Shown: piece by piece, positions 561 through 47,890 of the stretch
How the letters are laid out: every line of letters starts with the position of its first letter
How positions within the stretch are numbered: position 1 is the stretch's first letter
IMG/VR virus record: IMGVR_UViG_3300042461_000028
Location: 1 to 48,101 of that record
Direction: 5' to 3' (one strand)
From: a virus
Length of the DNA: 48,101 nucleotides
Translations under genes and position numbers: made by a program
Notes under the pieces: model-generated
The model's database searches: none
What the model was told of the DNA's origin: nothing
The model's input: the letters and a program-made list of their open reading frames with translations, nothing else

Positions 561-793
561 AGCGCTTACTGATCGTCCTCATTCTGCTCACAGGCTGTGC
601 GCAAAAGGAAGCGATCCAGGAACCACTGAAGGTTCACCGCACAACCGTTTATCGATACACCAGCGAACAATGCCAGCCAGGCCAAGAAGAGCGCCTACGC
701 GAGGCGCTGAAAAGTGCCCGAGAGTGGAAGCGCTATGCCGAAAGCCTGGAAAAACTGCCAGCAGCGAAGACGACCCATGAAATTAATCCCTGA
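557..793 (+). CDS. small lipoprotein, o-spanin-like (78 aa)
   Basis: Signal peptide with lipobox MKRLLIVLILLTGC. Short mature part with one more Cys (SEQCQPG) and a charged helical tail. Translationally coupled to the upstream gene. Confidence 0.6.
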   Translation: MKRLLIVLILLTGCAQKEAIQEPLKVHRTTVYRYTSEQCQPGQEERLREALKSAREWKRYAESLEKLPAAKTTHEINP

Positions 794-1001
794 ATGGCGA
801 AAGGCCTGGCGAATGACCAGTGTGCAACTGGCGATTGTCGGCGTGGTGCTTAATGCCGCGGCTACCGGCTGGTCGTCCTTCCAAGGCTCGGTTGATCCTC
901 TGGTCTACGCCATTGTGAACATGGTGCTCGGTATCGCTGTGGCAGTGTCCAGGGTGATCAAGCAGCCGAAGCTCGCCGATCAGCCAGAACAGAACGAGTA
1001 A
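777..1001 (+). CDS. holin-like small membrane protein (74 aa)
   Basis: ATG 777 within ORF 714..1001. Two hydrophobic spans (VQLAIVGVVLNAAATGW; LVYAIVNMVLGIAVAV) and a charged C-terminal tail (KQPKLADQPEQNE), the class-II holin layout. No family match verified. Confidence 0.45.
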   Translation: MKLIPEWRKAWRMTSVQLAIVGVVLNAAATGWSSFQGSVDPLVYAIVNMVLGIAVAVSRVIKQPKLADQPEQNE

Positions 1002-6847: not shown

Positions 6848-7879
6848 ATGACTCAGCTTAAAAAAATCGTCGTAGCCATCGATGCCGCCATTGCGCACCA
6901 GATTGGCCGTGATGCCTACCAAGTGACCTTCAACGACGGTCTGCCGACCCTCGACGACGGCCTGGCGTTCTATATCAGCCAGCTGGCGAACCTGGAATCT
7001 CGTATCTACGAGGCCAAATACGCTGCGATCAACTACGCCGAGCTGATCCCAGTCCAAACCGACATGCCTGAATGGGCGGACAGCTGGGACTACATCAGCT
7101 ACGACGCCGTCACCATTGGCAAATTCATCGGATCCAGCGCTGACGACCTGCCGAACGTTGCGCTGTCGGCGAACAAGTCGTCCGTGCCGATCGGCTACGC
7201 TGGCAACATGTACGACTACAGCCTGGACGAGCTGCGCAAGTCGCAACAGCTGCGCATTCCGCTGGACTCCACCAAGGCGCGTGCCGCTTTCCGTGGCGCC
7301 CAGGAACACACCCAGCGCGTTGCGTACTTCGGTGACGCCACTCGCGGCATGACCGGCGCGTTCAACAATCCGAACCTGGCCCTGTCGAACTCGACTCTGA
7401 ACTGGTTCGACCCTGCCACCACCGGCATGCAGATCGTTGAGGATGTCGATGACTTCCTGGGCGACATCTGGACCAACTCGGCCACCGTGCACGTGCCTAA
7501 CACCCTCGTGCTGGACTCGGCGCGGTGGCGTCGTATCAACAGCATGCCGATGTCCAAGGAGCTGCCGAACACCACTGTTCTGCAGTACCTGAAGGAAAAC
7601 AACGTCTACACCGGCCTGACAGGCCAGCCACTGCGCATTGAGCAGCGGCTGCAATTGTCAGCCGCCCAGCTCGCCGCCAACGGCGTGTCCAACGGCAACA
7701 AGGACCGCATGATGGCCTACGAGCTGAACGACGAGAACCTGGGCATGCAGGTTCCGATCCCATGGCGCTCCCTGGCTCCGCAGATGCACAACCTGATGGT
7801 CAAGGTTCCCTGCGAGTACAAGATCAGCGGTGTTGAATTCCGCTATCCGTTCTCCGGCGCGTACCGCGATCAGTTCTAA
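6848..7879 (+). CDS. major capsid protein (DUF2184 / HK97-fold type)
   Basis: ATG 6848 within ORF 6782..7879. 343 aa; sequence (…LANLESRIYEAKYAAINYAELIPV…) resembles DUF2184 capsid proteins. Followed by a strong hairpin. Confidence 0.8.
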   Translation: MTQLKKIVVAIDAAIAHQIGRDAYQVTFNDGLPTLDDGLAFYISQLANLESRIYEAKYAAINYAELIPVQTDMPEWADSWDYISYDAVTIGKFIGSSADDLPNVALSANKSSVPIGYAGNMYDYSLDELRKSQQLRIPLDSTKARAAFRGAQEHTQRVAYFGDATRGMTGAFNNPNLALSNSTLNWFDPATTGMQIVEDVDDFLGDIWTNSATVHVPNTLVLDSARWRRINSMPMSKELPNTTVLQYLKENNVYTGLTGQPLRIEQRLQLSAAQLAANGVSNGNKDRMMAYELNDENLGMQVPIPWRSLAPQMHNLMVKVPCEYKISGVEFRYPFSGAYRDQF

Positions 7880-20355: not shown

Positions 20356-22197
20356 ATGACCATCACCTACCGGGTTAGAAATGGTGCACCGCTTACATGG
20401 GCGCAAGTGGACGAGAATTTCCGGACGCTGGACACAGAGAAAGTCTCCGCTCGGCCTGGCTTTGATCTCTCCCAAGAAAACTTCACGCCAACGTACAAGC
20501 AAACTCTGGACAATCTGCCAAACAACCTAGAGTTTCGGCTTGAGCAGGCTGAAGACAACGCGGCTCAAGCTGCGATTGATGCAGCGGCAGCCAACCAGAA
20601 GGCCAGTATAGTCGTAGCGCCTGATGAGGCTGATAAGGGTCCTGGCGCCATTCCGTATGACCAGTCTTTGGGGTATCCCGGCTGGAGTCTTGGCGCGGCA
20701 GTGAAGCTTGCGGCTCAGGGTAGTCAGGTACTTTCAAGTCTGGCGGAAAGTGACGGATCCGCCAAAGTTGGATTCATTCAGTCCGGCCTTGGTGTGGTGG
20801 CTCGAAACATCCAAGACCGCATGCGCGAGCGCGTCAGCGTCAAAGACTTTGACGGCGTAATCGGCGACGGCATTCACGATGACACAGTAGGCATCCAGGC
20901 GGCAATCAACGATGGCCGGCCCTTGGACTTCGGTGGCACGGAGAATGTGTATCGACTCACGGCTGACCTTACACCCCAGAACGGCGGCCGCTATTATGGG
21001 CATGGGGCAACGATCTTCCAGGAATCGATCGGTGAGGAGGCATTCGCTTGCACCTCTCTGACCGATGCTAAGTTCCATGGTCTGACCCTCATCGGCGCAA
21101 GCCCTGACCCCTTGGTCACTGACGGGACCAACCGAGCCTTCGAGCTTTTTGCTCCGAAGGATGTGGTCATCGAACAGTGCACGATGAAAAACTGGGGCTC
21201 CGCAGGGGTGTTCCTAACTGGAGGTGGCGGTGCGGCGTATGGGCCTACCAACTGCAAAGTGCTCAACAACCTAATCGAGAACTGTAACGACGGCATCTTC
21301 ACCTATGTCGGCGGGGTGGGCAATCTGATCTCTGGGAACACGATCCGTCGTTCAGGCCGTACAGGCATTTTCATCGACGATGTGTCGTTCTCTTCTGGCG
21401 GGACCCCCGTTATTGCCACCATGTTGACGGTAACTGGCAACATCATCGAGAACTATGGAGGCTTTGCAGAGGCAGCGGGTATTACGTCCGGGGCGATGCG
21501 GCGCGTCAATATAATCGAAAATATTATTGGCCCAGGCAATGGAGCCGGAATCTCTTTGTTTGCCGGCGGAGCAGAGGCTGACGCTCCTACGACTACCAAT
21601 TGCGCGCTGGTTGCACTGAATCAGATATACCGGCCAAGCAAGCAAGCCGTGGTTCTGGTTGGGGTTCAATACAGTCAGGTTATCCATAACCTGTGCTGGG
21701 AAGCGAACTACGGCGCAACTGGAAACAACAGCGCTATTGAATTGCAAGCGATGACTCGTGCAGGAACCACAGTTGGTTCCGACAAGAACATCATCGAGAG
21801 CAATACCATTGTTCGCGTCACGGGCGACGTCGATAACGGAATCCGCTTACAGGCGAACTGCTCGAGCAACCGGGTACGGCTGAACATCATCGAAGGCTCT
21901 ACATCGAAGGGCGTTCTTGACGAAGGTACTGCCAACAAGATCAGCCAGAACGAAGGATTTAAAACGGAAAACTCCGGAACCGCTAGCATCACCACAGGCA
22001 ATACATTCGTGGATGTGACTCATGGACTGGATTACACGCCGGCAGTTCAGGACATCACCATAACTCTGAACTCTTCGCTAGGGGCGGCCACATACTGGCT
22101 GATATCGGGCGCGCCTTCAGCAACGAACTTCAGGATCGCGCTGAATGCAAACCCTGGTGCGACAGTGAATATGGCCTGGTCCGTCAGAAAAAACTAG
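20356..22197 (+). CDS. tailspike with right-handed beta-helix (pectate-lyase-3-like) domain, probable polysaccharide depolymerase
   Basis: 613 aa. VSVKDFDGVIGDGIHDDTVGIQAAINDG matches the N-terminal cap motif of Pectate_lyase_3. Repeated NxIxN/GIF rungs follow (NNLIENCNDGIF, GNTIRRSGRTGIFIDD, GNIIENYGG). Confidence 0.75.
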   Translation: MTITYRVRNGAPLTWAQVDENFRTLDTEKVSARPGFDLSQENFTPTYKQTLDNLPNNLEFRLEQAEDNAAQAAIDAAAANQKASIVVAPDEADKGPGAIPYDQSLGYPGWSLGAAVKLAAQGSQVLSSLAESDGSAKVGFIQSGLGVVARNIQDRMRERVSVKDFDGVIGDGIHDDTVGIQAAINDGRPLDFGGTENVYRLTADLTPQNGGRYYGHGATIFQESIGEEAFACTSLTDAKFHGLTLIGASPDPLVTDGTNRAFELFAPKDVVIEQCTMKNWGSAGVFLTGGGGAAYGPTNCKVLNNLIENCNDGIFTYVGGVGNLISGNTIRRSGRTGIFIDDVSFSSGGTPVIATMLTVTGNIIENYGGFAEAAGITSGAMRRVNIIENIIGPGNGAGISLFAGGAEADAPTTTNCALVALNQIYRPSKQAVVLVGVQYSQVIHNLCWEANYGATGNNSAIELQAMTRAGTTVGSDKNIIESNTIVRVTGDVDNGIRLQANCSSNRVRLNIIEGSTSKGVLDEGTANKISQNEGFKTENSGTASITTGNTFVDVTHGLDYTPAVQDITITLNSSLGAATYWLISGAPSATNFRIALNANPGATVNMAWSVRKN

Positions 22198-22220: not shown

Positions 22221-22566
22221 ACCTCGATTGTGTGATCCATGACCCAATCAGGACTTTCGCTTCCTTGACCTCCTCAGCCGTAACCCTTTCCTGGAACTCA
22301 TCCTTGGACTCAGATCCAGGGTTCTGATTTGGGTCAGAAGTCTCGTAGTTATACCGAGTCTCTACATGAGCAGCCAGAGCCTTTCTACAAGCGGTGATCA
22401 CGCTGTTGGCAAGATCATTCGGGGCTACGTTGCCCTTCTTCTTATCGAACTCTTGGACCAGGCACTGGGAGTACGCATCGCTTGCGGTGCCTCTCAGGTC
22501 ATTGGTGTTGCTGGCATGTGCAGTTATTGCCAGGGCAGAAATCAGGATTGCAGATAGGTGCTTCAT
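22219..22566 (-). CDS. secreted moron protein, unknown function (115 aa)
   Basis: Opposite strand to all neighbours. Signal peptide MKHLSAILISALAITAHA|SN. Two Cys; helical and charged. Visibly lower GC than flanks. Confidence 0.7.
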   Translation of the reverse strand: MKHLSAILISALAITAHASNTNDLRGTASDAYSQCLVQEFDKKKGNVAPNDLANSVITACRKALAAHVETRYNYETSDPNQNPGSESKDEFQERVTAEEVKEAKVLIGSWITQSR

Positions 22567-22663
22567 TTCGTCCGTCCGTAGCTTGAATGAAATTTTGGCG
22601 GATGGTAGGGCAACGCGTCGAACACGACAAGAAAATCTCAGCGGTACCCATATTGGATATCAG

Positions 22664-22688
22664 AGCCCGCCATCAAGCGGGCTTTTTC
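22664..22688 (+). terminator. rho-independent terminator immediately upstream of the endolysin SD
   Basis: agcccgc(22664-70) catcaa gcgggct(22677-83) then tttt. 7-bp stem, 6-nt loop, U-tract on + strand only. Confidence 0.65.
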
Positions 22689-22705
22689 ATTTCTGGAGAA
22701 AATCC

Positions 22706-23131
22706 ATGAACGCAACAGATAAGGACCGCGACATCCTGGCCCGCACCCTGTGGGGCGAGGCCCGCGGCGAAGGCTTGGCCGGGCAGATCGCCGTAGCCCA
22801 CACCATCCGCAACCGTGTGGAGGATGGCAAGGCCAAATCCTGGTGGGGTGAGGGCTACGCCGGCGTGTGCCTGAAGCCCTACCAGTTCAGTTGCTGGAAC
22901 AAGAACGACCCGAACTATCCCTACCTGAGCGGCGCGAAGCCGATCCCGCCGAAGCAGTTCGCCCAAGCGCAGCGGGCGGCCGACCTGGTGATCTCCGGCG
23001 CCGAGCCTGATATCACGAAGGGCGCGACCCACTACTACGCCACGACCATGCCAAAGGCTCCGGCCTGGGCGGCCAAGGCCACGCAGACACTCCGCCTGGG
23101 TAACCACATCTTCTTCAAGGACGTGCCATGA
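22706..23131 (+). CDS. endolysin, SleB/Hydrolase_2-type cell-wall hydrolase
   Basis: ATG 22706 with GGAGA upstream. DILARTLWGEARGEGLAGQIAVAHTIRNRV…KPYQFSCWN is the Hydrolase_2 signature. No signal or SAR sequence. Confidence 0.85.
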   Translation: MNATDKDRDILARTLWGEARGEGLAGQIAVAHTIRNRVEDGKAKSWWGEGYAGVCLKPYQFSCWNKNDPNYPYLSGAKPIPPKQFAQAQRAADLVISGAEPDITKGATHYYATTMPKAPAWAAKATQTLRLGNHIFFKDVP

Positions 23132-35977: not shown

Positions 35978-36171
35978 GACGACTCCTTGCGCCTGGCAAC
36001 GATCTTGTTGAGGCGCCTACAGTAGTGGTTGAATTCTTCGATGGTGATGCGCTCGTCGGCCATCATTTCGCTGATTGTTTTCTGGATCATCAGCGACCAA
36101 CTGACCGGCGTTGCTGGGTCCTCTAGGGTTTCCAGCTCTTCGCCGATGAGGACGTGCGGGGACATGGTCAC
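35959..36171 (-). CDS. hypothetical small protein (70 aa)
   Basis: ATGA-coupled to the upstream gene; high third-position GC. Confidence 0.5.
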   Translation of the reverse strand: MTMSPHVLIGEELETLEDPATPVSWSLMIQKTISEMMADERITIEEFNHYCRRLNKIVARRKESSCPHQL

Positions 36172-36587
36172 AATGCGTCGTCCTCTGTCTGAGCGATCAG
36201 CGCTTCATCGACCAGGGGCCGGAGTAGGCCCTCAGCAATCTCGCCGAGCGCGCCCAATGGGTGATCGCTGGGGCCCAGCAGTTCGGCGATGGCGTTCTTG
36301 TCTGGCCGGCCCAGGTCCAGCAGCAGCCAACCCAGGGCTGCGGTGTGAACCTTGCAGTCCGCCAGTCGGCCATTCACATGCTCATCAACGGCCAGGGCCA
36401 GCTCACCAACGGTCACGCCTTGGGGTTGGTGCATACGGCGCTGGAACTTCACGTCCACGCCCCGGAGCAGGTCTTCAACCGCGTTGTACAGCCACTCAGC
36501 CCGCGCCAGTTCCTGAGGCGTCTCGCTCACCGGTGGAGGCAACTTCGCGTCGTGCATGGCCTGACAGATATTCAGTGCTGCGTTCAT
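36168..36587 (-). CDS. hypothetical early protein (139 aa)
   Basis: ATG with GGAGG 5 nt upstream. Confidence 0.6.
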   Translation of the reverse strand: MNAALNICQAMHDAKLPPPVSETPQELARAEWLYNAVEDLLRGVDVKFQRRMHQPQGVTVGELALAVDEHVNGRLADCKVHTAALGWLLLDLGRPDKNAIAELLGPSDHPLGALGEIAEGLLRPLVDEALIAQTEDDAL

Positions 36588-36608
36588 GGTTGCCTCCAGG
36601 GTGGCGGG

Positions 36609-36815
36609 TTACTCGGTGGGCGGGGCGGGGAGTGGCTGCCAGTGCGTAGGCGTGATGTCGCAGCGGTCACCGTCGATGTAGCGCCAAGGCCGATGCTCGT
36701 TGCCGCACGTCATGGCGAAGAAGGGGCCGTCGTTTGTTTTCCTGCCCAGGCGGTACGCCAAGACTTTCTGCTTGATCGGCGGCATCCTGTCGCTGCACTT
36801 GATCCATTCGGTCAC
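36609..36815 (-). CDS. DUF551-like protein, paralogue 1
   Basis: GTG with GGAGG upstream. MTEWIKCSDRMPP…THWQPLPAPP is the DUF551 pattern. Confidence 0.7.
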   Translation of the reverse strand: MTEWIKCSDRMPPIKQKVLAYRLGRKTNDGPFFAMTCGNEHRPWRYIDGDRCDITPTHWQPLPAPPTE

Positions 36816-36830
36816 GGGATCCTCCGTTAT

Positions 36831-37040
36831 TTATGATTGTTCGATTGGCAGCTCGGGAAGCGGCGCCCAATGTGATATGCAAGAAAAACTTTTGTGCACC
36901 CACACGGTATTAGCCACCTGGATAAGCGAACCGCACTCGATGGAGTCATGTTTGTGGAGAACCAGAACTGAATTCACGCTACCGTCAACAGCCCAAACGA
37001 TTTCAGGCAAGCGATCTGAGCACTTGATCCAATCGCTCAT
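36831..37040 (-). CDS. DUF551-like protein, paralogue 2
   Basis: MSDWIKCSDRLPE…SHWAPLPELP; GGAGG 5 nt upstream; lower GC than paralogue 1. Confidence 0.7.
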   Translation of the reverse strand: MSDWIKCSDRLPEIVWAVDGSVNSVLVLHKHDSIECGSLIQVANTVWVHKSFSCISHWAPLPELPIEQS

Positions 37041-37061
37041 GGCGACCTCCAGTGTTTGGGG

Positions 37062-37307
37062 TTAGGCGGAACGGGCGGCGAGCATGGCGTCGGCTATTTC
37101 GTACGCGGTCTTGGCGCTGTCGAGATTGTCGAATGCTTCATCCCAGGGCGCGCTGGTGACAAAGCCCTGCATTACCTTGGCCGCGAAGTAGTCGCGCAGG
37201 CTCATGCCAGACAAATCCCGCTTCGTTTCGGCGACCGTCGCCGGCTGAAAAACCATGTGGTCGTAGTCCGCGACAGGGAAGGCCGGGCCTCCGTCTTGAA
37301 TGCTCAT
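37062..37307 (-). CDS. hypothetical phage protein (81 aa)
   Basis: ATG 37307 with GGAG 6 nt upstream. MSIQDGGPAFP… is an N-terminus common in phage early proteins. Confidence 0.55.
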   Translation of the reverse strand: MSIQDGGPAFPVADYDHMVFQPATVAETKRDLSGMSLRDYFAAKVMQGFVTSAPWDEAFDNLDSAKTAYEIADAMLAARSA

Positions 37308-37410
37308 GACTCTCTCCATTCGTTGATTGATCCAACAAAACTCGCAATGCACTCAGCCGCTCCGCTGTTTGCCGTTGGGCGCGAAGGGGAGTGCATTCGG
37401 GTGGTGTCGG

Positions 37411-37447
37411 GATAAGAAAAGGCCCAACTCGACAGGAGGGCCTTTCC
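37411..37447 (-). terminator. rho-independent terminator inside the leftward early operon (tL-like)
   Basis: On the - strand: aaaggccc tcctgtcgagtt gggccttt tcttatc. 8-bp stem followed by a U-rich tract. Confidence 0.55.
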
Positions 37448-37960
37448 GATGCAGTGGTTTGAGTTTTGGGCGGGACCGTCAGCGCCAGAACGCCTGGACC
37501 CCGCTGGTACATCGCCAGCGCTCGCTGTGGGCGCGCAGTGGATCGCCTGACACGCTGGCTAGCCCGAGAGGTTCTGGCCTCTCAAAGCTCAACGTGGCAC
37601 CGATCAAGAAGATTTGGAGCATGTGATTCTCCAGTTGGTTGGTTGCCGGTTACGTCTCCGGCGCCGAGTTCCACGGCCGCCTCCATTTCCTCCCGACTTA
37701 AGCGCGCAATCGGTCGGGCGATTTGGTGCACCTCCCGGCCGCGAACTCGCAACCCTGTGGAGATTGATGCGGACCCGCATCGGGGTATGATCTGGCAGGT
37801 GCCAATCTCTGCATCAGCCCTGTTCATTGCTCGGGCTTCGCTGCATGGAAGCTTGCTGCTTGGCGGCAGGATTCAGATCACACTCCGATACGGCCTGGGC
37901 ATGCCTTCCGGCGCCAGGGGATCGGGCAGTTTGCGTCAGTGCTGACGTGGCGCTGGTTGT

Positions 37961-38155
37961 TCAGTTGAGATGCATGGCGAGCATTGCTCGATCCATGATC
38001 GCCAGCTCAGTAGTGCCGTTCATGATGCGGCGCAGCTCGGCCTCGCCTCCTGCAATGCCGGAGATTGCTGCCACCACGCTGAGGCGGCCCTTGCTGTCGG
38101 CGTTGCGCAAGGCCTGTCTGATGCGTTCGTCCTGCTTGCTGTCTGTCAGGTTCAT
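37961..38155 (-). CDS. first convincing gene of the PL operon (64 aa), unknown function
   Basis: ATG 38155 with GGAG 8 nt upstream; very high third-position GC; MNLTDSKQDERIRQALRNADSKGRL…. Confidence 0.6.
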   Translation of the reverse strand: MNLTDSKQDERIRQALRNADSKGRLSVVAAISGIAGGEAELRRIMNGTTELAIMDRAMLAMHLN

Positions 38156-38720
38156 CGTCTTGCTCCGTTGTTGCTGGCTTTCAAATACCTCCCGGGGTGT
38201 GAGAGGCATTTGTAAAGCCAGATGGCCGACCTGAAACAGCAGGGAGCCATCTGTGCCCAGGCCCGCTACTGGCGACAGCCTGGGTTTGTTGCGTCAGCGG
38301 TGCTGGCCAGTTACCCGCCGCTGATTGCAGGGCTGGCCGGTCGTCTTCGTGGGTGGGCGGCGAGCTTCCTCCTCACAGCGTCAAACAGCATCTGTTCGCC
38401 GTGGATCACAGGTCCCTACAACATGCACGCTACAGCTCTGAATGCCCTGATTGAGTGGGGCAGGGTGCATGAGGTCCGGCGGTCCCAGCCGAGGCTATCG
38501 GGATCGCTAATTTTTGAATTCGGTGTTTCATCTCCACCACGCGCATCGCCGGAGTCCTCTCGCTGCCCGCTGTCGCATCTGGCGTCACATCGGGTGGCTT
38601 GCGTGGTTTCGCGTACTCACATGTGGGAGCACGGCCAGTTCCAGAGCTGGCATGGCATCGACTATTTGTTGCTCGCACTTACCGGATGAAAACCGGGGTA
38701 GTCGATGGCGAGGATCCTGA

Positions 38721-38734
38721 GCTGTTAAAGAGCG
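38721..38734 (-). promoter_or_regulatory. boxA-like element (candidate nutL)
   Basis: The - strand reads CGCTCTTTAACAGC (rrn/lambdoid boxA: (T/C)GCTCTT(T)AACAA). Lies ~45-55 nt downstream of the predicted PL start. Confidence 0.45.
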
Positions 38735-38781
38735 GCGGGTCTGTTGAGGCCCTGGCGAGTCGCTGTGGCGTCTCGATGGGG

Positions 38782-38826
38782 ATAATATCTCCTATGGAAA
38801 TATTTGTGTCAACTCCAATGGAGATA
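38782..38826 (-). promoter_or_regulatory. PL promoter with two repressor operators (OL)
   Basis: The - strand has TTGACA (38812-38807), a 17-nt spacer and GATATT (38789-38784). 17-bp operators tatctcctatggaaata (38786-38802) and caactccaatggagata (38810-38826) overlap the spacer and the -35. Confidence 0.7.
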
Positions 38827-38842: not shown

Positions 38843-38868
38843 CGAAAAAGCCCGCGCTTGGCGGGCTC
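38843..38868 (-). terminator. hairpin with U-tract on the - strand just upstream of PL (insulator-like terminator)
   Basis: The - strand reads agcccgc caagc gcgggct tttt cgtg (7-bp stem). No U-tract on the + strand. Confidence 0.4.
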
Positions 38869-38884
38869 GGGTGGAAGGGAGGCC

Positions 38885-38893
38885 TGTTACAAT
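38885..38893 (+). promoter_or_regulatory. extended -10 promoter candidate for 38921..39262
   Basis: TGtTACAAT (TGn + TACAAT) lies 28 nt upstream of the ATG. No good -35. Confidence 0.35.
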
Positions 38894-38920
38894 CGGCTCA
38901 TTCAGCGACTGGAGTGGGCT

Positions 38921-39262
38921 ATGAATAGGATTGTCGTGGCAGGCTTGTTTTCAATTATTGGCGTGCCGTGCTTAGCTTTCGGATACACACAGCAGGACGC
39001 CAACGAGGACGCCGTTTTCATATGGTCGTCCGGCTGCACAGATTTCAAGGCAGGGATGAATGCAGGCGATTTTCGCGAATGGTTGAGAGTAGGGGACGCA
39101 GCAAAGACCTTCTTAGGGATCAAGAGCATCGCCGTCAATAAATTGTACATGGACGGGTGGGAGGTGGCGCGGGGGCTTGGTGGTGTCATCGACTGCCAGG
39201 AAATGGCTAAGCGACGCGCTACCGACTATGTGTCAGGCGTAGATATCCGGAGATTGGAGTAG
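38921..39262 (+). CDS. secreted/periplasmic accessory protein (113 aa)
   Basis: ATG 38921 with GGAG 7 nt upstream. Signal-like N-terminus MNRIVVAGLFSIIGVPCLAFG. Cys residues in the mature part. Lower GC. Opposite strand to the repressor operon. Confidence 0.6.
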   Translation: MNRIVVAGLFSIIGVPCLAFGYTQQDANEDAVFIWSSGCTDFKAGMNAGDFREWLRVGDAAKTFLGIKSIAVNKLYMDGWEVARGLGGVIDCQEMAKRRATDYVSGVDIRRLE

Positions 39263-39274
39263 GCCAGATACAAG

Positions 39275-39297
39275 AAGCCCGGCGCTGGGCCGGGCTT
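39275..39297. terminator. bidirectional hairpin between convergent accessory genes
   Basis: agcccggc gctgg gccgggct (8-9 bp stem) between the stops at 39262 (+) and 39300 (-). Confidence 0.55.
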
Positions 39298-39299
39298 TG

Positions 39300-39818
39300 T
39301 CACCTCTGCGGTTGAGGCTCGCTATGTTCGAGCTTAATTCTCATCTCAGTGACTGACTTTGATATCTCTTTCGTATCGTCTGCAATGCCTCGCACATCTT
39401 CGCGGACGTATGAGTTAAATCTAGCGTTCTCTTCCTTCTGTGCGGATAGGCCCCATTGAAGGGTGCCGAGAAAGATAGAGAGCACTGCTATGGCAGTTCC
39501 AATTGCCCACCACTTTGCATTAGATAGTGCACGCACGGTCTGCTGATTGGAGGACTTTAGATCGGAAATGGCTGTGGCGATATCGCCAACCTTCCGATCA
39601 AGGCGCTCTTCAATCAGCTGAAGTTTTGTGTCGATCTCTTCGCGTGTGATATTGGTCATGGGGTCAGTATCGCCCGCCAATAGCTTTTTGTCATGCGCCG
39701 CTACGGCAATCTTCTGCTCCAGCTCGGCTATTGTTTCTTCCTGTTTGGCGTACTGCCGCTGAAGCAGGGTAGAGGACACATTCGTTTCGGGAGCAGGATC
39801 ATCGGCCTTAGCTTCCAC
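39300..39818 (-). CDS. coiled-coil single-pass membrane protein (172 aa), unknown family
   Basis: GTG 39818 (AGGTGA upstream). ~100 aa of charged heptad-like helix, one TM (WWAIGTAIAVLSIFLGTLQWGL) and a charged tail. A/T-rich codon choice. Confidence 0.65.
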   Translation of the reverse strand: MEAKADDPAPETNVSSTLLQRQYAKQEETIAELEQKIAVAAHDKKLLAGDTDPMTNITREEIDTKLQLIEERLDRKVGDIATAISDLKSSNQQTVRALSNAKWWAIGTAIAVLSIFLGTLQWGLSAQKEENARFNSYVREDVRGIADDTKEISKSVTEMRIKLEHSEPQPQR

Positions 39819-40056
39819 TGTTGGTCACCTGTATCTTCGAAAGCTCATCCAGAATATCCATCTGCTTTTTTAAGCCTTTGAACTCGTCGAGCATTCTTGA
39901 TCTGAATGCCGATGGAAGGTCAGGCTCCTCCGCCATTGAGGACACTAGATTCATGATCGTTTCGGTGTTCGCAATGCTTAGGGCGTGCAGCCTGGACACT
40001 AAAAGCTTCAGCTTTAGCACGTCCTGGGATTGGTCCGTGCGCTTATCATCATCCAT
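39808..40056 (-). CDS. small acidic helical protein (82 aa), unknown family
   Basis: ATG 40056 with GGAGAA 6 nt upstream, 17 nt after the repressor stop. Overlaps the next gene by 11 nt. Confidence 0.6.
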   Translation of the reverse strand: MDDDKRTDQSQDVLKLKLLVSRLHALSIANTETIMNLVSSMAEEPDLPSAFRSRMLDEFKGLKKQMDILDELSKIQVTNSGS

Positions 40057-40073
40057 TCCGTTCTCCAAATGAG

Positions 40074-40865
40074 TTACAGCATCCCGCCGCGCCACACGAC
40101 GCGACCGATGATGCGAACCTCGTTTATCTCGCCATCACGCAGAATCTCATCGCCATAGCGCGCCTTGTCGGGGTTGTCGCTTCGGATGATCCAGCCGTCG
40201 ATGTCTGACTTCACCAGGCGCTTCACGATCGTGCCCTTATTGGCGCTCTGCATTGCGAAGATCTGGCCGTCTTTTGGCTCGATCTTCGACTCATCAACCA
40301 ACAGCACGTCACCGTCATTGATGGACGGCTCCATGCTGTTTCCGTTGGCATAAATGACGTCCAGGTGCCGCTGGTTGAGGTTGTTGGCTCGCAGCCAGGA
40401 TGACTTGAACGCCATGACCCCGCGAATCTCGACGTGAGGGTTGTCGTCGCCATCTCCGGTTGATCCGCGCGCGGTGAGCTGCAATACACCTGTGTAGCCT
40501 GGCTCGTTCTGGAGGTCAAAGCTTCGCGGCGGGATGCGCTCATCGATCTGCGCAGTTGCCGAATTCGACTTTAGCCCAGCCGCTGAGGCCATCCGCTCAA
40601 TGTCAGACTCAATCCGCTTACTGAAAGTCCCGATCGGAATTCCAAGCATCCCTGCCATTGAAACAGCAAGTTTCTGAGTCAGCGGCCTATGGCCGTTGAG
40701 GTGGCTACCCAGCGTCCCCTGGCTCATTCCGACAGCGTGCGCAATCTCGTCCTGGGTCAGGCGTTTGTCCTTTGGTCGGGAGGCGTTGTAGTCCGCAATG
40801 GCCTTTTTCAAAGCTGCGCACTCTTCTCGCTCCCAGTCATGCAATGGGCGGCGTTCTTTAGTCAT
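40074..40865 (-). CDS. cI: CI-type repressor: N-terminal HTH (XRE) + C-terminal S24 LexA-like autopeptidase
   Basis: ATG 40865 (263 aa). LTQDEIAHAVGMSQGTLGSHLNG HTH; linker with AAG (Ala-Gly); C-terminal …GNSMEP…IVKRL… (Ser/Lys dyad). Divergent from cro across the operators. Confidence 0.9.
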   Translation of the reverse strand: MTKERRPLHDWEREECAALKKAIADYNASRPKDKRLTQDEIAHAVGMSQGTLGSHLNGHRPLTQKLAVSMAGMLGIPIGTFSKRIESDIERMASAAGLKSNSATAQIDERIPPRSFDLQNEPGYTGVLQLTARGSTGDGDDNPHVEIRGVMAFKSSWLRANNLNQRHLDVIYANGNSMEPSINDGDVLLVDESKIEPKDGQIFAMQSANKGTIVKRLVKSDIDGWIIRSDNPDKARYGDEILRDGEINEVRIIGRVVWRGGML

Positions 40866-40875
40866 TTCGCAAGAA

Positions 40876-40941
40876 TATTCCCAAGGGAAATAGTTAACCA
40901 TCTCCATTGGAGTTGCAAAGTATCTCCATGGGAGATAATCT
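40876..40941 (+). promoter_or_regulatory. OR operators (x3) and PR promoter
   Basis: 17-bp sites tattcccaagggaaata (40876-92), catctccattggagttg (40899-915) and the perfect palindrome tatctccatgggagata (40921-37). PR has TTGCAA (40913-18), a 17-nt spacer and TAATCT (40936-41). Confidence 0.75.
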
Positions 40942-40971
40942 GCGCGCATGAATGCCAATGGAGATATGGCC

Positions 40972-41178
40972 ATGAGCCGAATCACTCTCAATCAGTTCGC
41001 TACCAGCAAAGGGCAGACCAAGGCAGCTCAGCTCCTCGGCATGACCCAGGGCGCTTTGAATAAAGCCCTGCGAGTAGGTCGTGACATCTACGTTACCGAA
41101 TCGCCTGACGGAACCTTCCAGGCTGAAGAGGTGCGGCCGTTCCCGAGCCAGACACCGCTTAAAAAATCAGCTGCATAA
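40972..41178 (+). CDS. cro: Cro-type HTH regulator
   Basis: ATG 40972 with GGAG 8 nt upstream (ORF extends to 40948). …GQTKAAQLLGMTQGALNKALRVGRDIYV… HTH. First gene after PR. Confidence 0.8.
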   Translation: MSRITLNQFATSKGQTKAAQLLGMTQGALNKALRVGRDIYVTESPDGTFQAEEVRPFPSQTPLKKSAA

Positions 41179-47610: not shown

Positions 47611-47820
47611 GCCCACGATTTACCGCTGCCAGGGCGGCCTCACGGATAACCTGGACGCCGATTAGCCGGACAGTACGGCGTACGGAAATAACACCGGCAG
47701 CCCGCGCACCTTGACCTCACATGCTTTCCGGGTGGCGCGAGACTTGAGCGGCGAGATCGATGCAATAGGGCGTCGACGTCGCGAACGCCTTCGGCTGGCA
47801 GCGTGGGAAGACACGCAATT

Positions 47821-47890
47821 GCGGGTAGCGCAGGTCGCTAGACAGCCTTCCAAGCTTTCGATCAGGGTTCGATTCCCTGTATCCGCTCCA
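47821..47890 (+). tRNA. tRNA-Gly(UCC)-like, atypically short D-arm, encoded CCA
   Basis: Acceptor GCGGGTA/TATCCGC (one G-U). Anticodon loop CTTCCAA. T-arm CAGGG-TTCGATT-CCCTG. Discriminator T + CCA. Only 14 nt between acceptor and anticodon stems. Confidence 0.6.

Follow-up and report, generated by a model that had tools for sequence, protein, structure and literature searches.

The stretch of DNA analysed here, IMG/VR virus record IMGVR_UViG_3300042461_000028 from position 1 to 48,101 (the window, 48,101 nucleotides in full), is a Pseudomonas prophage. The distal part of its repressor operon, on the minus strand at 39300..40056, consists of a gene for a small acidic protein, orf82, followed by an open reading frame (ORF) of 172 codons for a coiled-coil membrane protein. 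The cassette is of a known kind, an accessory cassette of an immunity operon with an embedded second promoter, and it is built from an undescribed, widespread family. An earlier note on the window proved right in all its sequence statements and in part of its interpretation. It had taken the two genes for a fixed pair; this did not stand, as the conserved element is the C-terminal 119 residues of the membrane protein, while the partner gene and the first 53 codons are exchangeable. A promoter embedded in the 172-aa ORF probably yields a leaderless mRNA for a short form made up of these 119 residues. We give an even chance to the reading in which the distal part of the immunity operon comprises an exchangeable orf82 and a bitopic inner-membrane protein in two forms that would act, by analogy, as an effector of superinfection exclusion or abortive infection (Abi).

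The accessory genes of repressor operons are what a prophage expresses in every lysogen, and those of lambda founded the study of abortive infection. The analysis defines a large unannotated family (>400 clusters) whose gene nearly always closes the cI-type repressor operon in Pseudomonas and related bacteria, and for which the comparative evidence of an in-ORF promoter is unusually clear. The features that carry the argument are as follows.

39808..40056, minus strand: orf82, ATG at 40056, Shine-Dalgarno sequence GGAGAA at 40066..40061, stop codon at 39810..39808
39300..39818, minus strand: long-form coding sequence, 172 aa, start at GTG 39818 with an 11-nt overlap with the orf82 stop
39660..39818, minus strand: variable N-terminal extension, codons 1-53, tied to the upstream partner and translated, as shown by comparison
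39666..39694, minus strand: putative internal sigma-70-type promoter, -35 ATGACA at 39694..39689, 17-nt spacer, -10 GATACT at 39671..39666, from a consensus scan and conservation
39300..39659, minus strand: predicted short-form coding sequence, 119 aa, Met54 to Arg172, with a leaderless mRNA predicted to begin at the A of ATG 39659
39447..39512, minus strand: transmembrane (TM) segment, residues 103-124, WWAIGTAIAVLSIFLGTLQWGL, from the hydrophobic span and family alignments

Predicted embedded promoter and short form

The -10 hexamer GATACT of the putative promoter ends 6 nt before the ATG of Met54 (39659). Met54 is invariant among the homologues, several of which are annotated as 119-122-aa proteins beginning at this residue; its codon, the start of the core, is always ATG, whereas the long form starts with ATG, GTG or TTG. 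When a first set of 14 independent homologous loci was aligned on the core ATG, upstream conservation was confined to TGACA (-34..-30), ATACT (-11..-7) and a C at -1, and the 17-nt spacer and remaining columns carry ~0.27 bits per column. The ten motif columns hold 14.2 bits; with 500 sets of random ATGs as anchors, the best two windows never exceeded 4.65 bits. Adding 47 non-redundant loci of the wider family from IMG/VR, and 4 from elsewhere, brought the set to 65. Related loci were drawn from IMG/VR, metagenomes and exact-protein look-ups, since species-representative genomes gave nothing in a first scan and one locus in a second. A -10 element (A at position 2, T at position 6 and at least 4 of 6 matches) lies exactly at -12..-7 in 53 of the 65 loci, and a -35 element (at least 4 of 6 matches) is present in 55. 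Both are found in 49 loci, with a spacer of 17 nt in 46 of the 49, whereas of the 6518 other ATG triplets in these loci no more than 11 (0.17%) satisfy the thresholds. In the loci L007 and L010, the promoter tool independently reports the Met54-proximal site and no other promoter-like site. The arrangement extends to a Burkholderia gladioli member (TTGTGC-17-AATACT-6-ATG), and an Alcaligenes member reads TATACT-6-ATG.

The motif lies within translated sequence, and a consensus scan of a single sequence is insignificant by itself (2 sites against 2.0 expected). Both points favour an alternative in which there is no internal promoter, the TGACA/ATACT columns stem from a peptide motif (D-K ... 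D/H-T-x-x-M) or from some other signal in the DNA or RNA, and the 172-aa protein is the only product. We regard this as very unlikely on several grounds. Four of the conserved bases (T at -34, -10 and -7, C at -1) fall on third codon positions of the long ORF, and the codon at -9..-7 is ACT in 12 of the first 14 loci, a rare codon that makes up 16.5% of the Thr codons in the window; nothing is conserved between the hexamers. The encoded residues vary (D, H, N, Y; T, N, D) so as to keep nAT-AnT: of 198 N-extended family proteins, 166 have H, D, N or Y as residue -4 and 154 have T, N or D as residue -3. As the favoured residues are those whose codons can read nAT-AnT, the constraint acts on the DNA rather than on the protein, and the element is kept in dozens of loci whose upstream sequences otherwise have nothing in common. 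Moreover, the 17-nt and 6-nt geometry relative to the invariant ATG recurs at the frequency given above, far from that of other ATGs, and the junction of the mosaic described below coincides with Met54. The earlier note had seen no space for a promoter; this holds at both gene junctions and fails inside the 172-aa ORF, where the promoter-like element runs from 39694 to 39666.

With a -10 element that ends 6 nt before the ATG, a C at -1 and an A at +1, transcription is predicted to start on the A of the Met54 codon, and the mRNA is therefore predicted to be leaderless. The cI mRNA made from PRM in lambda is leaderless as well. Control of the internal promoter by cI was considered and set aside, as the operator-motif scan of the window gave no operator-like site near it.

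Comparison shows that the extension upstream of Met54 is translated as well. Codons 1-53 differ from those of a 90%-identical relative with the same orf82 and N-terminal region, L013, by 13 synonymous and 3 non-synonymous changes. In 60 of the 65 loci the core reading frame is open back to the stop codon of the upstream gene, and the nearest start codon in frame overlaps this stop, the commonest overlaps being 8 nt (22 loci), 11 nt (11 loci), 14 nt (8 loci), 4 nt (5 loci) and 1 nt (3 loci). The substitution pattern and the open frame with overlapping starts show that the 172-aa ORF is translated along its whole length, and they rule out the possibility that the N-extension is an artefact of gene calling. 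Given the conserved promoter and Met54 on the one hand and the translated extension on the other, both long and short products are expected. The overlap of the start with the stop of the partner gene permits translational coupling. The same type of comparison, made with the relatives that share orf82 and the N-terminal region (L013 and L014), was applied to orf82, and the counts given are those against L013. In orf82, 18 codon differences are synonymous and 2 non-synonymous; for orf82 and the N-terminal 53 codons alike, the other two frames give 0-1 synonymous and 15-19 non-synonymous differences. Since the differences are mostly synonymous in the annotated frames and the opposite out of frame, orf82 and the 172-aa ORF are both real genes under purifying selection.

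The membrane core and its upstream partners

The AlphaFold2 model of the 172-aa product (predicted local distance difference test score, pLDDT, 74; predicted template modelling score, pTM, 0.24) has helices at residues 12-48 and 59-165, and a single hydrophobic span lies at residues ~103-124. This agrees with the helical coiled coil and one TM segment proposed earlier from the letters. The product is acidic, with an isoelectric point (pI) of 5.1. Next to the TM segment, the N-side flank has 3 basic residues and none acidic and the C-side flank 3 basic and 2 acidic ones, which suggests an N-in/C-out topology. The best-conserved part of the protein is the TM segment together with the SAQKEENARF..Y.R.D segment that follows it.

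Comparison of the homologues shows the 172-aa ORF to be a mosaic, in which residues 1-53 are variable and linked to the partner, and residues 54-172 form a conserved core. Forty-five homologues, all from Pseudomonas wherever the source is named, have only residues 54-172 in common. The N-terminal 53 residues of the window protein and orf82 recur together before other coiled-coil/TM C-terminal modules, of 227 and 195 aa (L013, L014), and the conserved core is also found behind unrelated N-extensions and unrelated upstream partners. The partner gene is thus exchangeable, with the orf82 type in the minority. A zinc-ribbon-like partner stands upstream in 38 of the 65 loci; the unrelated partners seen before the conserved core include zinc-ribbon proteins of ~118 aa and other helical proteins. 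None of the alternative partners rises above the Pfam threshold or matches a PADLOC model, and 8 of them, searched along with 2 family members, gave nothing in PADLOC at E<=0.01 except one stray match at 0.005.

orf82 itself has only 7 homologues, all from Pseudomonas or metagenomic. Its product is acidic (pI 5.0) and modelled by AlphaFold2 as a helical hairpin (pLDDT 75.5), as the earlier note had expected of an acidic, helical protein. In PHROGs it matches phrog_17996, of function not known, at 5.7e-6. Foldseek comparison of the model with PDB and BFVD gave generic helical hairpins only, none of them at E<=1e-3, and the protein is not RexA-like by this measure or by sequence, there being no match in Pfam, PADLOC or PDB sequences.

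We also note that related prophages may carry one or two extra small helical genes (~78-99 aa, M.LTKPNQ.L..DL...) between cI and the partner gene, and the repressor operon is therefore a variable array of small genes with the conserved membrane gene last. The extra genes occupy the cI-partner interval at the following positions.

L013, 4710..4949: extra small helical gene region
L014, 4658..4957: extra small helical gene region
L006, 2906..3381: extra small helical gene region

A profile search of 1.84 billion representative proteins placed 413 clusters in the membrane-core family at E<=1e-3, 12 of them full-length relatives at E<=1e-30, and a second search gave 459 clusters at E<=1e-5. The members come from Pseudomonas, Burkholderia, Alcaligenes, Castellaniella, Cupriavidus and Janthinobacterium. 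Nearly all named members are called 'hypothetical', with a few stray automated names, and all but two of the clusters are without Pfam domains. One member, P0021, is carried by P. aeruginosa strains, for example in GCA_025399155.1 (CP104695.1, near 2.4739 Mb). Two motifs run through the family, ITRxELDAKLExIExRMDARV and, in the TM helix, KWWAIGTA; the first has a looser version, ITRxE(I/L)DxKLxxIExR(L/M)DxxV, and the window protein contains both core motifs. Members of a narrower Pseudomonas clade also have LQWGLSAQKEENARFxxYxRxD immediately outside the membrane. The genomic context is remarkably constant: Cro, a divergent S24 repressor, one or more small genes, the family gene and a terminator. 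In 46 of 51 further loci the nearest large upstream ORF on the same strand is a Peptidase_S24 protein, although the mean column identity of these repressors is only 18%; an S24 repressor is likewise upstream in the individually inspected loci whose upstream flank is present. The window shares the traits of the family, in that its gene is the last of an S24-repressor operon, overlaps a small partner and holds the embedded -35/17/-10 arrangement 6 nt before the ATG. The neighbourhoods of some family members also hold known defence and counter-defence genes; at 7250..7630 of L030/L031 and 4622..4975 of L023, a BstA_C/KilA-N or an Acb2/Tad1-like anti-defence protein lies within a few kb of the family member.

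The lasting linkage to such diverse repressors (46/51, 18% identity) makes a role in the prophage's own switch a serious rival, although on balance a rather unlikely one. The anatomy would be the same, and the protein would modulate lysis-lysogeny or induction as a membrane tether or sensor that feeds back on cI or Cro, with no exclusion; defence cargo in this position usually varies. The rival gains from the operator-free promoter, with which the supply of short form would continue once the repressor promoter is off, and from lambda, where RexA binds CI and biases the switch and RexB is still made from PLIT after induction (doi 10.1101/2021.04.19.439022). It is weakened by the moron-like base composition and by the lack of a DNA-binding or repressor-interacting domain, and the strongest conservation falls on the TM helix and the periplasmic juxtamembrane segment, which points to a target in the envelope.

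Operon layout and neighbouring features

The operators mapped at OR and OL/PL place the cassette between cI/OR and OL/PL (~38.8 kb), that is, in the rexAB position proposed for it in the earlier note; OR at 40900..40965 and OL/PL at 38784..38825 bracket it. The palindromic ATCTCCATTGGAGAT-like operator motif has 15 matches in the window against 1.0 expected. The remaining features of the region are these.

40074..40865, minus strand: cI-like repressor coding sequence, 263 aa from ATG 40865, first gene of the operon, with HTH_3 and Peptidase_S24 domains
40900..40965, no strand assigned: right operator (OR), three ATCTCCATTGGAGAT-like sites between cI and cro, at 40900..40914, 40922..40936 and 40951..40965
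40948..41178, plus strand: cro, divergent from cI, Pfam Cro 4.5e-24
38784..38825, minus strand: left operator (OL) region, two operators at 38787..38801 and 38811..38825 that overlap the PL-like promoter
38784..38812, minus strand: PL-like promoter TTGACA-17-GATATT (38812..38784), a promoter-like site from the consensus scan, under the OL sites
38723..38734, minus strand: boxA-like CGCTCTTTAACA in the PL leader, nutL-like, 3' of the PL-like promoter
39275..39297, minus strand: intrinsic terminator, TIMM analogue, at the end of the immunity operon, a hairpin of 9 bp (7 G-C) with a T-rich tail

The cI-like ORF matches HTH_3 (2.5e-5) and Peptidase_S24 (1e-15) in Pfam and PHROG 4, 'transcriptional repressor', at 1.5e-34, and its TAA stop lies at 40076..40074. 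No Shine-Dalgarno sequence precedes its ATG, and an AATATT hexamer resembling a -10 element lies ~9 nt upstream (40866..40890, minus strand); the leader of cI may, by analogy with lambda PRM, be very short or absent. The longest Cro ORF has its first codons within reach of the third OR operator (40951..40965), which overlaps them, and its Pfam Cro match begins at residue 9. The real start of Cro is probably ATG 40966 or 40972, the former being the one in our feature list.

The ATG of orf82 follows the cI stop after 17 nt. This gap, the GGAGAA Shine-Dalgarno sequence and the 11-nt overlap with the GTG of the 172-aa gene were all as the earlier note had them. Both genes have the orientation of cI and the junctions leave no space for signals, and orf82 and the 172-aa ORF are therefore very probably read on the repressor transcript. 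The unit ends, again as described before, at the hairpin 39275..39297, for which the 9-bp stem with 7 G-C pairs and the T-rich tail were found; the hairpin also closes a convergent ORF on the plus strand. Comparable GC-rich hairpins directly follow the stop codon in three relatives (L001, L007, L010).

G+C content at third codon positions (GC3) is 0.54 in the 172-aa ORF and 0.63 in orf82, compared with 0.71-0.81 in cI and most other sampled long genes (an exception, 20356..22197, is at 0.61), which bears out the A/T-richer third positions reported in the earlier note. The convergent ORF, at 38858..39262 on the plus strand between OL and the cassette, shares the terminator. From its probable start at ATG 38921 it encodes ~113 aa beginning MNRIVVAGLFSIIGVPCLAFG, which resembles a signal peptide; it has no match in Pfam, PHROGs, NCBIfam or PADLOC and is a candidate for a second lysogen-expressed accessory gene.

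This adjoining exported-protein ORF (38921..39262), the low GC3 and the lysogen-expressed position would also suit a factor of lysogenic conversion that alters the envelope for host fitness (for example pili, transport or stress tolerance), with any effects on phages incidental, as would a bitopic membrane protein with a conserved periplasmic segment. Such a factor is nevertheless unlikely here: the dual-isoform setup and the coupled partner suggest tight control, not a simple structural factor, and no homology indicates any particular target.

In the PL leader (38520..38780, minus strand), the boxA-like CGCTCTTTAACA, which confirms the position and direction of PL, is followed by a conserved hairpin-like GCCAGCTCTGGAACTGGC. 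This stretch is kept as DNA 3' of the cassettes in many related prophages (L007-L014), the flanking genes of which differ, and it is probably a nutL-type antitermination site; the conserved element has no real match in Rfam. Farther along, the region 36000..38700 has a G+C content of 0.60-0.67 and many overlapping ORFs on both strands, of which 36029..36649, 37961..38209 and 38222..38689 have no Pfam match; several related loci show DNA conservation in two short segments of it, 37915..37968 and 38256..38302. Near the end of the window, on the plus strand, lie a full-length Proteo-phage-1 RNA (RF03044, 82 bits) at 47623..47702 and, at 47821..47887, a weak tRNA-like Rfam match of 30.9 bits that ARAGORN does not call.

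Proposed function and likeness to known systems

The searches for relatives of described function gave no described family for either protein in Pfam, PHROGs, NCBIfam or PADLOC, where sub-threshold coiled-coil noise (KIF21A, DUF948, TIGR04211 SH3_and_anchor) or nothing was returned, and nothing meaningful among PDB sequences; the earlier note, too, had recognised no family. The 172-aa protein scores 17.4 bits (E=0.0049, residues 106-158 only) against DUF948/YoxC (PF06103), for which the cut-off is 37.2, and 24.7 bits against TIGR04211, with a cut-off of 65. The SieB family is not found in the Pfam and PHROG scans at E<=1, and megablast and tblastn searches of 50,697 phage records returned no relative of either protein. 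The overlapping exclusion genes of P. aeruginosa phage Fc02 (PMC9936078) were considered and rejected as a counterpart: that phage is Mu-like, and its genes are of other sizes and stand upstream of the repressor.

The resemblance to XhlA suggested in the earlier note holds for the topology and goes no further for the window protein, which has no match to Pfam XhlA (PF10779) at E<=1. The relatives P0060 and P0063 reach 21.9 and 27.9 bits (2.1e-4 and 2.6e-6), below the gathering threshold of 34.7. Dual-start isoforms are typical of holins, as in the S105/S107 holin/antiholin of lambda. These sub-threshold matches, the dual starts, the coiled coil with one TM segment and the acidic upstream partner that overlaps the gene would all be in keeping with a toxin-antitoxin-like or lysis-accessory module, in which a holin- or XhlA-like lesion former is restrained by its partner and serves prophage maintenance or lysis timing. 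We find this decidedly unlikely. A holin (714..1001) and an endolysin (22394..23131) are encoded by the phage away from the cassette; a gene of the repressor operon would be on in healthy lysogens; and an extra promoter for the 'toxin' alone is hard to fit with antitoxin-first logic.

We favour an exclusion or Abi role, which is plausible by analogy. In lysogens, the transcript from the repressor promoter would supply cI, orf82 and a long form of 19 kDa, while the operator-free embedded promoter would supply a leaderless mRNA for a short form of 13.5 kDa, without the partner-linked N-terminal module. Both forms would share the cytoplasmic coiled coil, the TM helix with its small-residue motif (G..xA) and the periplasmic juxtamembrane helix, and with these parts in common they can probably co-assemble. 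The membrane protein would then be a lysogen-expressed effector of superinfection exclusion or abortive infection, with an activity that would depend on how much long form there is relative to short form and on binding of the small partner to the N-extension of the long form.

A doubtful, though possible, extension of this proposal is that the two forms and the partner make up a self-regulating membrane switch for exclusion or Abi, in an undescribed family that is widespread in prophages of Pseudomonas and Burkholderiales. Production of the long form would be limited to the time when the repressor promoter is active, and this form would carry a partner-specific sensor module bound by the small protein; the short form, made constitutively, would co-assemble with it through the coiled coil and TM helix and act as an antagonist or self-immunity factor. 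Such a switch would resemble Esc/SieB or antiholin/holin, but would work via an in-ORF promoter.

Several observations weigh against the exclusion or Abi proposal. The window proteins have no match at E<=1 among the 5027 models of PADLOC-DB 2.0, a comparison the earlier note had put forward as a check, and no structural relative was found among PDB sequences or by Foldseek of the orf82 model. RexB has four TM helices and the membrane protein a single one. Of the 65 loci, 16 are without the full promoter motif, and the P. aeruginosa variant has a weak -35 element; the start of transcription, the making of a short protein and the translation of a leaderless mRNA by Pseudomonas are predictions from sequence. 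Lasting linkage to very different repressors is atypical of freely exchanged defence cargo, and a role in lysogeny could account for it. If the proposal is right, a new prophage membrane system, probably for exclusion or Abi, joins the defence repertoire of Pseudomonas and bears on host range in phage therapy. It would also be a clean natural case of isoform control by an embedded promoter, and the annotation would be corrected, as databases now call the 119-aa or the 160-210-aa form at random.

The cassette resembles cI-rexA-rexB of lambda in its position between cI and OL/PL, its very probable co-transcription with the repressor, the order of cytoplasmic partner and membrane gene, the second promoter (predicted here) within upstream coding sequence for the membrane protein alone, and the terminator after the last gene. 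Lambda rexB has two promoters, PRM and PLIT, the latter embedded in the end of rexA and still active after induction, and transcription ends at TIMM just past rexB (doi 10.1101/2021.04.19.439022). There is no sequence or fold similarity: lambda RexA is a 279-aa DNA-binding protein, whereas orf82 encodes an 82-aa helical hairpin. In contrast to PLIT, the promoter of the window lies within the membrane gene's own frame and would yield a nested shorter form from an mRNA predicted to be leaderless.

In P22, Esc is reportedly nested in-frame within sieB (Ranade and Poteete 1993). P22 sieB/esc is a prophage-expressed exclusion gene with two nested in-frame products and a regulated switch between them, and the window gene would be like it if the predicted short form is made; there is no homology. 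P22 sieB mRNA gives distinct peptides, SieB and its antagonist Esc, the synthesis of which is switched (PMC12197685). The P22 switch is translational and driven by antisense RNA, and sieB lies outside the repressor operon, whereas a separate promoter and a leaderless start are predicted for the window gene.

XhlA and DUF948/YoxC share with the window protein a short coiled coil and a single TM helix, at a profile similarity that is weak and below curated cut-offs. XhlA works with holin and endolysin in a late lysis cassette (PMC5589764), whereas the window gene belongs to a lysogenic repressor operon and the lysis genes of the phage lie elsewhere. Closer in setting is RexABpp (PP_5643/PP_5644) of P. 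putida prophage P1, a two-gene abortive-infection system shown experimentally (PMC12894663). Deletion of two intervening genes there, PP_3897 and PP_3898, left the plating of the phages tried in that study unchanged. RexApp is RexA-like and RexBpp has four TM helices, and the window proteins are unrelated to them in size and topology; both cassettes, that of the window being known from sequence, pair a cytoplasmic protein, the sensor in RexABpp, with a membrane protein, the effector there, 3' of a cI-like repressor in a Pseudomonas prophage.

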